This document shows, one piece after another, positions 9,373 through 16,243 of a DNA stretch of 64,000 bases (the first letter of the stretch is position 1; every line of letters begins with the position of its first letter). The notes under the pieces are model-generated. The model worked only from the letters and a program-made list of their open reading frames with translations. It was not told the DNA's origin and did not search any database. The stretch is taken from IMG/VR virus record IMGVR_UViG_3300022666_000091; one strand, 5' to 3'. Made by a program: the position numbers and the translations under genes. Origin of the DNA: an uncultured virus (IMG/VR IMGVR_UViG_3300022666_000091) (Duplodnaviria > Heunggongvirae > Uroviricota > Caudoviricetes).

Positions 9373-9461
9373 TGCTCTGCCTTGCAGTGCTTTGTTAGGC
9401 GGCGCATGGTAGTGCCGGGCTAGCCGGGGCTGTGCAGTGCCAGGCCCTCCAATCCAAGGGA
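9373..9461 (+). ncRNA. Pentamer array 2: 15 x (KGY-NN) plus tail CTCCAATCCAAGGGA; putative gapped guide RNA
   Basis: TGC-tc TGC-ct TGC-ag TGC-tt TGT-ta GGC-gg CGC-at GGT-ag TGC-cg GGC-ta GCC-gg GGC-tg TGC-ag TGC-ca GGC-cc; same 15-nt tail as array 1. Confidence 0.8.
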
Positions 9462-9488
9462 AACAAAAATTCATCATAAGGAGAATAC

Positions 9489-12110
9489 ATGAAACCGATA
9501 TACGGAAAAGTGAGAGGCTCGAAAGCAATTCGCGCCGGCATGGGGCTGGAAGAGATCGAGATTGATTTCTCGAAGCTCCCGAACGGCCTGATCGCCGTCT
9601 GCGGCAAGAACGGCACGGGGAAAACCACTATCCTCGACCTGTTGTGTCATCCCTTCAGGTTGCAGCCGTACAAATTGAGGGAGAGCAAGGCATGGTCTCC
9701 CGATGCCTTCTCGTACTACAACGAGTTCTACGGCAGGGACGGCTACTTGGAGCGGGTCTTCGAAATGAACGGCGCCCGTTACCGCTCGATCATCATGATC
9801 GACGCCGAGAAGCGGAAACAGGAATGCTACCTGTACCGGGAAGAGGCCGGGACGTGGATCCCTTACAACGCCGCCGTCAAGGCCGGGAAGACCCGCGCTT
9901 ATGACGAGGCCGTCGAGGAACTGGTCGGCTCCCCCTCCCTCTTCTTCTCGTCGGTCTTCCGCAGCCAGGATGCCCGCAAGCTCTCGTCCTATCCGAGATC
10001 GGAGATCCTGGGAATCGTCACCGAACTCTTGAACATCGACCATATCCGGATTCAGGGGGACAAAGCGAACGAGGTTGTCAAGGCCCTGGCCCGCATGGTG
10101 GAAGAACTGGAAGCCAAGAAGCAGCCGCTCCTGGCTGCCATGTCGAAGCTGGACGAACTCCAGGAGCGGAAGGCCTTCCTGGGAAAAGAGATCGCCCACC
10201 AGAACAACGGCCTGGAAGTTTTCAAGCGGACCCTGACCGACAAGGAACAGTCCGCCCACGACCTGGAACTGGCCTTTGCCGCCGAAGCCGTCTCCCGGAA
10301 GCGCCTCGACGACATGAAGGCGGAACACGCCCGGCTGCAGGCGGAGATTACCGCCTTCGAGCAGGAAACCGCGACACGGCTCCAGGAATATGATGCCGAG
10401 ATCGCCCGGCTGGGGGAGGCCCTGGCTGCTGAGAAGAAGCAGCTGACCGCCGATATCGAGACCATGCAGACCGATCTCGAAAAAGCCCGCCAGGAAGCCC
10501 TGAACGAAGGCGCCGCCATTGAGCAGAAACGGAACGCCCTGAAAGACATCCTCGCCCGGGCCGACGAAATCAACGCCGCAGTCACCCTGGAGAAAGAAGA
10601 AGAGGCGGGCCTCGCCCACTGGAAGGAAAAACTGGAAGCGATCCGGGTTCAGTACGCCGGACTCCAGAAAGAGGCACAGACAGCTACACAGCTGACCGCC
10701 GATATCAAGGTGGCCCAAGGCGATCTTGAGAACATTCGGCACCGCCAAGCACAACGGATCGCAAACTTGAAGCGGGAGCAGGAACGCGACCGGCAACAGG
10801 TCGCCTCACTCGGAAATCTCGACTGCAAAGCAGACGGTTCCGGCTGGATCAACGAAACCTGCCCGCTCCTGGTCGATGCCATGGCCGCACGGCAACGGCT
10901 TGATACGCTGTCGCAGGAGATTGAAGAGGCGGCAAGGGTATCACCGCAGGAAGAGACCTTGACCGCTCAGATAGCCGAAATGAAAGCGAAGCGGACGGAG
11001 ATGGGCGACGTGTCGGCAAGGCTGGAAGCCTGCGGTACCGACGGCAAGGAAAAAGCCCGGCTGGTAGCCGAACTGGAGAAGAAACTGACCGAAACCCGCA
11101 AGGTCGCGCAGTTGGTTTTCGAGCTGGATACGGCGAAGACCCGCATGGAGGAACTGGAGCAGCAGGAACAGGCAGTCTTGCAGCGGCATTCCGACAAATG
11201 CCTCGACGTCGAGCGCCAGGTCACGGCACGCATGGAGCGGTCACGGGTCGCACAGGAGGATATCAAGACTCGCACGGCAGACGTCCAGGCGAAACGGGAC
11301 GAGTACGCAAGAGCCGCCGGCGGCAAGGATGCCGACCTGCGGGGCCGGGCATTCGGCCTTCAGGGAGAAATCGAGCAGCTCTCCACCTCCCTTGACGGCG
11401 GCCTGGAAGCTAACCTGAAGCAGATCCAGACCGAGATCGCCACGGCAAAACAGGAAGTCGAACGGCAGGAAACCACCCTGCGCAATCTGTATGGCCAGAT
11501 CGGCGGCGTTGAGCAGCAGCTGGCGGCCCTGAAAGAATCCCAGCAGGTGGTGGAAGCCATCGACGGGAAGATTGTCAGGATTAATGCGGAAGCCATCAAC
11601 TGGCGGATACTGGCGAAGGCGTGCAGTAATGACGGGATAATCCAGCTCGAACTGGATGACTCGGGGCCTGCGATATCGGCCCTGACAAATGATCTGCTCC
11701 TGTCGGTCTATGGCCCCAGATTCTCGATCCGGCTGGAGACGCAGGCGCTGAAGGCCGACGGCGGACTCAAAGAGGTGTTTGATGTGACGATCTTCGACGC
11801 CGAGCGGGACGAAGAGAAGTCAATCCGCGACATGTCCGGAGGGGAGGTCACCTACATCGAGGATGCCATCACCCGGGCCTTCTGCCTCTTCAACCTGAAC
11901 CGGTCGAACCGGGTGTATGAATCCCTGTTCTGCGATGAGAAAGATGGGGCGTTGGATCAGGACCGCAAGACGGAGTTCCTGACCATCAAGCGGCGGGCGT
12001 TGGAAATCGGTTCGCACCGGCAGGAATACTTTATCACGCAAACGCCGGATCTGTTCGAGCGGGCCGACGCCAGGATCGTCCTGGAGAAAGGAGGGGTTAC
12101 CATCCAATAG
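9489..12110 (+). CDS. sbcC: SbcC/Rad50-like SMC ATPase
   Basis: Walker A GKNGTGKTT, long coiled coil with central Cys pair, signature MSGGE, Walker B/D-loop LFCDEKDGALD. Confidence 0.9.
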   Translation: MKPIYGKVRGSKAIRAGMGLEEIEIDFSKLPNGLIAVCGKNGTGKTTILDLLCHPFRLQPYKLRESKAWSPDAFSYYNEFYGRDGYLERVFEMNGARYRSIIMIDAEKRKQECYLYREEAGTWIPYNAAVKAGKTRAYDEAVEELVGSPSLFFSSVFRSQDARKLSSYPRSEILGIVTELLNIDHIRIQGDKANEVVKALARMVEELEAKKQPLLAAMSKLDELQERKAFLGKEIAHQNNGLEVFKRTLTDKEQSAHDLELAFAAEAVSRKRLDDMKAEHARLQAEITAFEQETATRLQEYDAEIARLGEALAAEKKQLTADIETMQTDLEKARQEALNEGAAIEQKRNALKDILARADEINAAVTLEKEEEAGLAHWKEKLEAIRVQYAGLQKEAQTATQLTADIKVAQGDLENIRHRQAQRIANLKREQERDRQQVASLGNLDCKADGSGWINETCPLLVDAMAARQRLDTLSQEIEEAARVSPQEETLTAQIAEMKAKRTEMGDVSARLEACGTDGKEKARLVAELEKKLTETRKVAQLVFELDTAKTRMEELEQQEQAVLQRHSDKCLDVERQVTARMERSRVAQEDIKTRTADVQAKRDEYARAAGGKDADLRGRAFGLQGEIEQLSTSLDGGLEANLKQIQTEIATAKQEVERQETTLRNLYGQIGGVEQQLAALKESQQVVEAIDGKIVRINAEAINWRILAKACSNDGIIQLELDDSGPAISALTNDLLLSVYGPRFSIRLETQALKADGGLKEVFDVTIFDAERDEEKSIRDMSGGEVTYIEDAITRAFCLFNLNRSNRVYESLFCDEKDGALDQDRKTEFLTIKRRALEIGSHRQEYFITQTPDLFERADARIVLEKGGVTIQ

Positions 12111-14774: not shown

Positions 14775-15169
14775 TGCCGTACCCCCTCGATGAAGGTCTG
14801 GAACACCTGAATCAGCTCCATCTCGCCCGGTTCCAGGGTGTACCACCCCGCCAGACTCCCGACCGCGATTCGGGTGAGATATTTCTCGTCTTCATCGCGG
14901 TAGGCAGCCTTGATCTTTTCCTGCATCCGGCTCTCGATCAGTTGGCAGTGAACACTCGCCGCCTTGATCTGCTCCTTCAACTCACCCTCGGGCACAATCT
15001 CCTCCAGCTGCACCTGCTCCGGCTGTTCGGCTGCCAAGACAGCGCCGTCCGGCACGCTGACGTAGGTGAAGCCGTCAGGCAGCGCGCACAGCTCGATAAG
15101 TCCCTCGCCCTGCGGGGTGTAGGTGGTGTACTCGTCTGCGGTCTTGCGGTAGCGGTATATGGCCGGCAT
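14738..15169 (-). CDS. Hypothetical protein immediately downstream of the DGR RT
   Basis: GAGGAG RBS before MPAIYRYRK; overlaps RT 3' end by about 95 nt. Confidence 0.65.
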   Translation of the reverse strand: MPAIYRYRKTADEYTTYTPQGEGLIELCALPDGFTYVSVPDGAVLAAEQPEQVQLEEIVPEGELKEQIKAASVHCQLIESRMQEKIKAAYRDEDEKYLTRIAVGSLAGWYTLEPGEMELIQVFQTFIEGVRQWGRDERAKLGL

Positions 15170-16121
15170 AGTTGCTCTCCTCGATGAGCCGCAGCATGTG
15201 CGGCAATGAATTGGTGCGGCAGGCGTGCCCCAGGATGGAAGCCAGCGCCCGGACGTCGCCCTTGCGCAGTGCTCTCCGGAACCGGTACAGGCTGAACTTG
15301 CGGATGAATCGCTTGCCCCGCCAGGTGCGGTAGCCCACGAAATTGATGCCCCGCTTAGCCCTCTGAAGGGTTGATTTCGACAGCGTGAGCCGCAGGGCGC
15401 TTTCCAGGTAGGCGACGATCCGCTCGCGGTACTCCAGGCACTGTTCACGGGTCAGGCCGATAAGCACGAAATCGTCCACGTAGCGGACGTAGTGCCTAAC
15501 CCCCAATACCCGCTTGACGAAATGGTCCAGCGGATTGAGGTAGATCAGCGCGTACAGCTGGCTTAGCAGGTTGCCGATGGGGATCCCGGTCGGACCGTCG
15601 CACTCGGCATAGAGCATCATCAGGTCGACCAGGCGGCGGTCCTTGATTCTCCGCTCGATGAGACCGCGCAGGATGGACCTGTCGATGCTGTGAAAGAACT
15701 TGCGGACGTCGAGCTTCAGGGTGTAACTATTCGGGTCGCATTGCTTGAGTGCCCGCTGAGTATAGTCACTGGCCCGGTGCGTACCCATGCCGACCCGGCA
15801 GGCGAAGCTTTGGTCGATGAACGTGGCGTTGAACAGCGGGTAGATGACCCGGTAGATGGCATGCTGCACCACGATGTCGCGGAACGCCGGGGCGTGGATG
15901 ATGCGCTCCTTGGGTTCGTACACCTTGAATTTGAAATACGGTCGTGGCCGATAGGTGCCGTCGTGGATCTCCCGGTGTAACGCCGCCAGGTTGTGCCCCA
16001 GGTTGGTTTCAAACTGGAAGCAGGCCCACTTCTTCCTTTTACCCCTGCGGGCGTCCAGGAATGCCTGGTGAAGGTTTTCCGGGGTGAATATTTGGTTGAA
16101 CAAGTTGCCGTGTCGCTTCAA
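15075..16121 (-). CDS. DGR reverse transcriptase
   Basis: GIPIGNLLSQ (DGR-type SQ), YVRYVDDF, LKLDVRKFF; probable TTG start 16121 (ORF open to 16196). Confidence 0.93.
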   Translation of the reverse strand: MKRHGNLFNQIFTPENLHQAFLDARRGKRKKWACFQFETNLGHNLAALHREIHDGTYRPRPYFKFKVYEPKERIIHAPAFRDIVVQHAIYRVIYPLFNATFIDQSFACRVGMGTHRASDYTQRALKQCDPNSYTLKLDVRKFFHSIDRSILRGLIERRIKDRRLVDLMMLYAECDGPTGIPIGNLLSQLYALIYLNPLDHFVKRVLGVRHYVRYVDDFVLIGLTREQCLEYRERIVAYLESALRLTLSKSTLQRAKRGINFVGYRTWRGKRFIRKFSLYRFRRALRKGDVRALASILGHACRTNSLPHMLRLIEESNYAGHIPLPQDRRRVHHLHPAGRGTYRAVRAA

Positions 16122-16243
16122 AAGATGCCTTCCTGATGTTCGGATTTCCCTACCAAAAAGTCCGGCTGGTTGATTTCGCGTAACGCCGGACACCATACCC
16201 CTGTTTCTCCACTTTACGCCTATTGCGTTTTGAGGCCGGAGAG

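Follow-up and report, generated by a model that had tools for sequence, protein, structure and literature searches.

A stretch of 64,000 nucleotides from an uncultured virus of the Caudoviricetes (IMG/VR record IMGVR_UViG_3300022666_000091), called the window in what follows, carries two arrays of pentanucleotide repeats, one directly before an sbcD-like gene and the other directly before an sbcC-like gene. VIPR is a silencing machinery of viruses that resembles CRISPR; both arrays are guide RNAs (vrRNAs) of such a system, and the second guide, vrRNA2, spells the sbcC gene of other phages better than the copy of its own carrier. The elements concerned are the following.

5839-6405, + strand: vipr gene, 188 amino acids, phrog_4652 (E 2e-20)
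6410-6494, + strand: repeat tract of vrRNA1, 17 units of K-G-Y plus NN, starting 4 nucleotides past the vipr stop codon
6495-6507, + strand: conserved 3' tail core of vrRNA1, TCCAATCCAAGGG, with the sbcD start 28 nucleotides later
6536-7852, + strand: sbcD-like nuclease gene (phrog_100, E 1e-21; Metallophos, E 4e-10)
6950-6999, + strand: resident sbcD site resembling the vrRNA1 target, LAALTLLPSPCKGNIVA, 21/34 bases (62%), in frame, the unique best of the window
9373-9447, + strand: repeat tract of vrRNA2, 15 units of K-G-Y plus NN, period 5
9448-9460, + strand: conserved 3' tail core of vrRNA2, the same 13-mer as behind vrRNA1
9489-12110, + strand: sbcC-like ATPase gene, 873 amino acids (phrog_77, E 5e-44)
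9639-9683, + strand: resident sbcC site, LLCHPFRLQPYKLRE (codons 51-65), immediately 3' of the Walker A motif GKNGTGKTT, 19/30 bases (63%)

The original prediction had placed the second array and written out the series of its variable dinucleotides (NN), and both are exact. From 9373 on the + strand, units 1 to 8 read TGCtc TGCct TGCag TGCtt TGTta GGCgg CGCat GGTag and units 9 to 15 TGCcg GGCta GCCgg GGCtg TGCag TGCca GGCcc, with the core K-G-Y (T or G, then G, then C or T) kept in 13 of the 15. The core is kept in 15 of the 17 units of vrRNA1, the NN letters of which are unlike those of vrRNA2. A scan of the whole window for arrays of period 5 returned these two only, both on the + strand. 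A pattern of six KGC-NN units with at most three mismatches matched 33 times for 4.67 expected, a figure that 0 of 100 shuffles attained, and its matches are concentrated almost wholly in 9373-9447 and 6410-6494. Between the vrRNA2 tail core and the ATG of sbcC lie 28 A-rich bases with a ribosome-binding site, and the spacing between tail core and start codon is exactly 28 nucleotides at sbcD as well. Judged from sequence, the true start of sbcD is likely the ATG at 6536 (MRILHTGDTH) and not the GTG at 6473 of the open reading frame list, which lies inside vrRNA1; an automatic annotation with that GTG start (window 6473-6535) would probably absorb part of the guide into sbcD. The product of sbcC has 50 homologues, several labelled exonuclease SbcC by their source records.

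VIPR systems have been described in three bioRxiv preprints of 2026 (10.64898/2026.04.26.720920, 10.64898/2026.04.26.720927 and 10.64898/2026.10.15.759431), and what is quoted from them here extends as far as the available parts of their text. In these systems, a vrRNA, an RNA of ~100 nucleotides that co-purifies with Vipr, has 9-16 YNNGG repeats and an invariable tail and is coated by protomers of the Vipr protein. Recognition is by the NN pairs, which read double-stranded DNA and skip one base per unit, mostly at codon wobble positions, and binding represses transcription. The preprint 10.64898/2026.04.26.720920 sorts VIPR systems into seven types, notes an accessory vap gene beside vipr, allows for 'a related consensus' to GGY and catalogues alternative repeat forms; natural targets are called there at a match of at least 80% of the NN bases, with no self-site that high. 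Worked examples in the 2026 preprints target satellites, switch regulators of prophages and other VIPR loci.

By homology, the phrog_4652 gene at 5839-6405 encodes Vipr, a small RAMP protein. A profile of 20 phrog_4652 homologues matches the entry 'SUSP1 Vipr protein' (PDB 36pp_D) over residues 4-183 with E 4.1e-12, and the single sequence matches PDB 36pp with E 1.5e-6, its G-loop GLGDFRPARKGPFGKF being aligned to GVGDWRPR----FGRF. The AlphaFold (AF2) model has a predicted local distance difference test score (pLDDT) of 86.6, and its best Foldseek matches are Csm3/Cas7, the subunits that form the backbone of CRISPR complexes of types III and VII (E 3e-6). The family is large and conserved, with 1657 proteins at E<=1e-3, and the Vipr of the window is 69-89% identical to 119 listed relatives. 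By analogy with the published proteins its role should be to coat the guides. The surroundings of vipr showed neither CRISPR repeats nor cas1/cas2 or other cas genes, and no vap gene was recognised there.

Arrays of this kind keep company with vipr genes. In a sample of 82 Vipr stretches (81 IMG/VR loci and the window), period-5 arrays stand on the vipr strand in 70 and on the opposite strand in 5, against 0 of 30 sbcC loci used as controls; in the window, vrRNA2 lies about 3 kb from vipr, inside the same co-directional run of + strand genes. Scanning with the tail motif and a few units led to further loci with the tail TCCAATCCAAGGG behind period-5 arrays: L119, which belongs to the complete 112.6-kb phage G002, and, in metagenome contigs, L128, L130, L133, L139 and probably L123 (=L138). 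These metagenome loci, together with L136, identical to the window, were accepted from 21 metagenome stretches having three units and the motif; the rest look like chance. In L130, L133 and L139 the array element is immediately ahead of the phrog_4652 gene. G002 also has a free-standing guide (L141:1189-1370), composed of TTGACA, 18 nucleotides, TAGTAT, 14-16 GGY-NN units, TCCAAGGG and, last, a GC-rich hairpin that has a run of T; it is situated between a promoter-like site and a terminator-like hairpin, about 130 nucleotides upstream of the G002 vipr, and a third G002 guide, with a longer TCCAATCCAAGGG tail, lies 14 kb away (L119). In some Vipr loci (L197:2006-2470, L200:2248-2477, L196 and L201) the period of 5 continues without a break for 30-93 units, well beyond the length of a single guide; such tracts may represent the staggered or fused arrays of which the preprint speaks.

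Other searches gave little. Rfam had no match at the gathering score, no tRNA was found, and the arrays are absent from the output of Tandem Repeats Finder (TRF). Used by itself, the 14-mer tail motif occurs in 117 IMG/VR stretches; at most 4 of 17 units upstream of it fit KGY, and all of these stretches look like chance. Blastn against INPHARED phages matched no relative, the nearest virus record (G001) is without this region, and neither genome contigs searched with SbcC nor IMG/VR searched with SbcD yielded relatives; IMG/VR searched with SbcC as a single protein yielded one distant, array-less locus. The window shows the marks of VIPR systems: a RAMP protein with its G-loop, a pentanucleotide array, a tail, an array on the same strand next to vipr, a guide (vrRNA2) that matches sbcC loci of other phages at 80% or more under the one-nucleotide skip, and no self-target at that level.

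The guides are decoded by taking the reverse complement of the NN series with one base skipped per unit. This rule, in which NN pairs with two target bases and the third or wobble base is passed over, had been applied in the original prediction and is the published '1-nt skip rule' (10.64898/2026.04.26.720920). Read in this way, vrRNA2 becomes GGn TGn CTn CAn CCn TAn CGn CTn ATn CCn TAn AAn CTn AGn GAn, as protein G-[CW]-L-[HQ]-P-Y-R-L-[IM]-P-Y-[KN]-L-[RS]-[DE]. It spells L-H-P-Y-R-L-M-P-Y-K-L-R-E, the consensus of SbcC homologues following Walker A. The match claimed for the resident gene is reproduced (7 of 15 dinucleotides, with 10 of the last 12 residues compatible) and comes to 19/30 bases. 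A further claim is not supported: two degenerate units at 9363-9372, proposed to extend the decoded peptide by S-K, are without G-Y and run into the stop codon of the preceding gene, and L228, the sole examined allele with E-S-K, has the Ser codon AGC, not TCn.

The idea that vrRNA2 represents a non-self allele stood the test set for it in the original prediction, an alignment of homologues. Among 49 SbcC homologues, gathered in a search with the N-terminal 160 residues, the consensus at the site is DNL-HPYRLMPYKLRE, of the guide type and not of the resident type; all of the last 13 guide units fit in two of them (P0123 and P0154), 12 in 7 and 11 in 5, compared with 10 in the resident SbcC. 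The DNA agrees. When homologous in-frame sites in 30 IMG/VR sbcC loci are compared with the guide, 26/30 bases are matched in L231, 25/30 in L228, 24/30 in L238 and likewise in L235, 23/30 in L229 and 21/30 in six further loci, for 19/30 in the resident gene. Four of the 30 loci are thereby matched at 80-87% of guide bases, and L231 reaches 25/26 over the 13 units away from the tail, whereas 1000 guides with permuted unit order attain at most 23/30 on the same loci. The five best-matching target phages have no phrog_4652 (vipr) gene (0/5), in a search that was positive in G002.

A raw score of 19/30 is just what the best of the ~128,000 positions of the window reaches by chance. The place of the match is another matter: of all sites for vrRNA2 on both strands of the window, that of the resident sbcC is the single best, and it falls in the reading frame of the gene that directly follows the array, where permuted vrRNA2 guides reach 19 in frame in 19 of 5000 trials.

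The first array can be decoded likewise, with a weaker outcome than that of vrRNA2 on sbcC. By the same rule vrRNA1 gives V-[KN]-A-[FL]-T-L-L-P-[RS]-P-[DE]-[KN]-[RS]-[KN]-L-[IM]-T, spelling F-T-L-L-P-S-P-D-K-S-N-L-I of SbcD, and one SbcD homologue, P0173 (KAVFTLLPSPDKSNLIA), is compatible with 13 consecutive units. Permuted vrRNA1 guides equal the score of the resident sbcD site in that gene in 33 of 5000 trials, and the best foreign site, in the sbcD of L228 (24/34), is reached by 5 of 1000 permuted guides. The window maxima, 19/30 for vrRNA2 and 21/34 for vrRNA1, leave both guides without a site at 80% in the window. Since the best window site of each guide is in the gene right behind it, with permutations to back this up, guide and neighbouring gene have a relationship, in which the guide corresponds to another allele than the one present.

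The resident copies depart from the guides in several ways. The sbcC site differs from the consensus by one extra codon, by Y>F and by M>Q, and from the guide by three silent differences of Leu/Arg codon family. At Leu, Arg and Ser positions shared by guide and resident, 6 of 8 are in the other codon family, for 3.12 expected from codon usage in the window (P 0.013). Of the 6 Leu/Arg codons of the sbcC site, 5 are from the rare TTR/AGR families, to which elsewhere in the gene 17 of 150 belong (Fisher P 2e-4), and five such codons, the maximum, are found in 3 of the 859 stretches of 15 codons in sbcC, that of the target site included.

These observations make it probable, and we are fairly confident of it, that the guides of this VIPR system are aimed at the sbcC and sbcD genes of rivals, while the resident copies have diverged. 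The carrier would be a phage or prophage having vipr and both guides in the same window. The two guides would be produced, most likely by being cut from the operon transcript; Vipr protomers, if they behave as those already described, would each take up a single K-G-Y unit and assemble into a helical filament, which would display the NN pairs and read double-stranded DNA two bases at a time, skipping the third (wobble) base. A stable complex on DNA would then block transcription, silencing the sbcCD genes of co-infecting or resident rival phages, and the resident sbcC and sbcD would escape through their mismatches to the guides.

Several facts weigh against this. About half of the units in the window begin with T, not G, and vrRNA1 has 17 units, for 9-16 in the preprint. 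The best foreign match of vrRNA1 is 71%, below the 80% line, which is itself a bioinformatic convention, the word 'mismatch' occurring 0 times in the available text of the cryo-electron microscopy preprint (10.64898/2026.04.26.720927). No perfect target of vrRNA2 was found: the exact 13-unit pattern, suggested as a check in the original prediction, has 0 matches in IMG/VR. The phages with sites at 80-87% are distant ones, their SbcC being 36-43% identical over the whole protein. The codon-family sample is small, the rare-family codon Arg 14 (AGG) of the sbcC site matches the guide, and the sbcD site is without rare-codon signal (P 0.58). Lastly, a guide placed before the gene that it resembles is not a general rule of VIPR: 4 of 108 pairs of array and downstream gene are at p<=0.01, and those at p<=0.05 number 6 for 5.4 expected.

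Of the four pairs at p<=0.01 two are those of this window, one is L209 and one is L201, where the array stands before its own vipr. This 11-unit array (L201:2407-2461), directly before the L201 vipr, scores 19/22 on early codons of the vipr of another phage (L202:310) and 18/22 on its own, which fits the published guides that target vipr, though the self-match is high. In a cross-locus target search with 156 other arrays, short 9-unit guides reach 80-89% by chance in DNA of that amount, so that the search tells nothing beyond vrRNA2 on L231 and L201 on the L202 vipr.

A bolder and rather doubtful extension is that guide and diverged gene are linked in a cassette, 'weapon plus immune allele', in which the guide silences the consensus sbcD or sbcC of rivals and the carrier relies on its recoded copy. 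As guide and immune allele are adjacent, recombination would move both, and such a cassette would spread through phage populations as a selfish allele-replacement module. The similar matches of L201 and L209 to the gene behind the array are one hint; metagenome contigs give others. In one X7 contig, 5842 is joined to 7316 via 791 other letters, vipr, vrRNA1 and the 5' part of sbcD with its guide-facing site being replaced as a block; an X3 contig is unlike the window before 6178 and has a joint 6271>6400, with vipr largely gone and vrRNA1 unchanged. Both X3 and X7 have contigs that stop at 9342 and others that start at 9367-9369, the 5' edge of vrRNA2. To go by these contig sequences, breaks at the edges of the presumed cassettes hint at modular exchange. 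One metagenome variant inside 6950-6999 has five differences, all at wobble positions. Chimeric SbcD or SbcC proteins, with an identical C-terminus and a foreign N-terminus, were not seen among the homologues, all of which are 42-66% identical throughout.

The resident genes could also be the true objects of the guides, matches of 62-63% providing weak, tunable repression in an autoregulatory loop. Guide and gene are indeed physically fused (tail, 28 nucleotides, start codon), and each guide has its best window site in frame in its own downstream gene. We think this unlikely, as foreign alleles match far better, at 80-87%, as the extra codon, the two amino acid changes and the rare codon families look like avoidance, not tuning, and as the available text of 10.64898/2026.04.26.720920 reports no self-match of 80% or more. 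It is still harder to believe that vrRNA2 is a historical footprint, derived from or co-evolved with an ancestral sbcC and now an unused relic. An X3 relative in which vipr is partly deleted and vrRNA1 kept indicates that the system decays in some lineages, but the vipr of the window is intact and highly conserved (69-89% identity to the 119 listed relatives), and the K-G-Y cores are kept in 13/15 and 15/17 units with both tails identical.

As to a cis-acting leader, in which the repeats would bind a ring-shaped or oligomeric RNA-binding protein and control the translation of sbcD and sbcC, it has in its favour the fixed 28-nucleotide spacing, a lack of predicted stable fold (z -1.04 and -1.09 on the + strand against shuffles) and the absence of a sigma-70-like promoter site next to either array, and it is very improbable, given that the neighbouring protein is Vipr, that arrays flank vipr in 70/82 stretches, that the NN letters hold gene-specific information superfluous for pure protein docking, and that one G002 array is free-standing, with a promoter-like site on one side and a terminator-like hairpin on the other. 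TRAP binds GAG/UAG repeats, and a TRAP-like or CsrA-like leader had been the first idea, dropped after the neighbouring protein was identified as Vipr. Binding of Vipr may have a secondary effect on the translation of the fused genes.

The system of the window can be set beside those already known. The VIPR of SUSP1 and of a Pseudomonas fulva prophage (type II; PDB 36pp) likewise has a small RAMP protein, homologous to SUSP1 Vipr, pentanucleotide guides with a three-base core, two free bases and an invariable 3' tail, and a reading in codon frame by the one-nucleotide skip with no self-site at or above 80%. The differences are substantial. The similarity of the window Vipr to that of SUSP1 is distant only; the cores are K-G-Y, with T or G first, instead of GGY; and the tail core TCCAATCCAAGGG, judged by the description in the preprint, differs from the pseudoknot tail of SUSP1. 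The window guides, unlike those of SUSP1 and P. fulva, are not clustered round vipr, each being fused to the 5' leader of a resident gene. Their predicted targets are the sbcC and sbcD of other phages, while those of the SUSP1 and P. fulva systems are the recombinase of a satellite and the switch regulators of a prophage.

Closer in spirit are the 'solo' vrRNAs of the SUSP1 family (10.64898/2026.10.15.759431), which likewise target a rival's copy of an item shared with the carrier, with a lower self-match, and are likewise wobble-aligned on conserved codons. There the shared items are components of VIPR, and here genes of a nuclease for DNA repair and recombination; and in the window, unlike in that family, the guide directly precedes a diverged copy belonging to the carrier itself. 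Amino acid changes are needed for escape, as that preprint emphasises, and its available text has 0 occurrences of 'six-fold' and one of 'synonymous', as 'non-synonymous'. In the window, by comparison, part of the difference between resident and guide is silent, within the Leu and Arg codon families. The likeness extends to the Cas7/Csm3 filaments of Class 1 CRISPR systems, which likewise have a RAMP fold with a G-loop. According to the preprint, these and VIPR place one protomer per fixed RNA step, a protein thumb periodically interrupting the pairing, with a step of 5 nucleotides and 2 pairing bases in VIPR versus 6 nucleotides and 5 pairing bases in CRISPR.

Systems of this kind have been described before, and the window holds a new, divergent member with a class of targets unreported so far. 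The new parts are sbcC and sbcD as target genes and the layout in which a guide sits beside the diverged copy of the carrier. SbcC and SbcD have 0 mentions in the supplement text of 10.64898/2026.04.26.720920 in its available form. What the window adds is a distant VIPR clade, with a K-G-Y core, a different tail and guides before the carrier's own genes, the predicted targets being conserved motifs of the catalytic region in the SbcCD nuclease of other phages. It also offers a concrete case of how a wobble-skipping guide might be avoided by a carrier or a target, through amino acid changes, an inserted codon and silent switches of Leu and Arg family. According to the preprints, such a code leaves no room for silent escape, a claim that needs a qualifier if the switches of codon family do protect. 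Were the cassette idea true, the codon switches at the sbcC site would show that a wobble-skipping code is escapable without any change of protein, and if guide and immune allele travel together, this would be a new form of allele-level conflict between phages.

A few neighbours complete the picture.

9178-9369, + strand: small DUF6011 gene (PF19474, E 7e-11), its start read from sequence and its stop 4 nucleotides ahead of vrRNA2

This gene is counted as a neighbour of vrRNA2 and not as a part of the system. On the 5' side of vipr is a PolB-exo-like gene for a 3'-5' exonuclease (5159-5842), which stays with the backbone where vipr is replaced in metagenome relatives (joint at 5842). Between the two arrays, a gene of 244 amino acids (7849-8583) looks dispensable, as metagenome deletions in it cover 7783-8592 (7782>8593, X7) and 7960-8418 (7959>8419, X9). 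Farther away, at 15075-16196 on the - strand, a diversity-generating retroelement (DGR)-type reverse transcriptase (phrog_1423, E 4e-104; RVT_1, E 1e-14) is encoded next to genes for tail fibres and the baseplate. G+C drops from ~0.6 to 0.42 in the last part of the window (62001-64000), which may correspond to a boundary between prophage and host or to a foreign insert.

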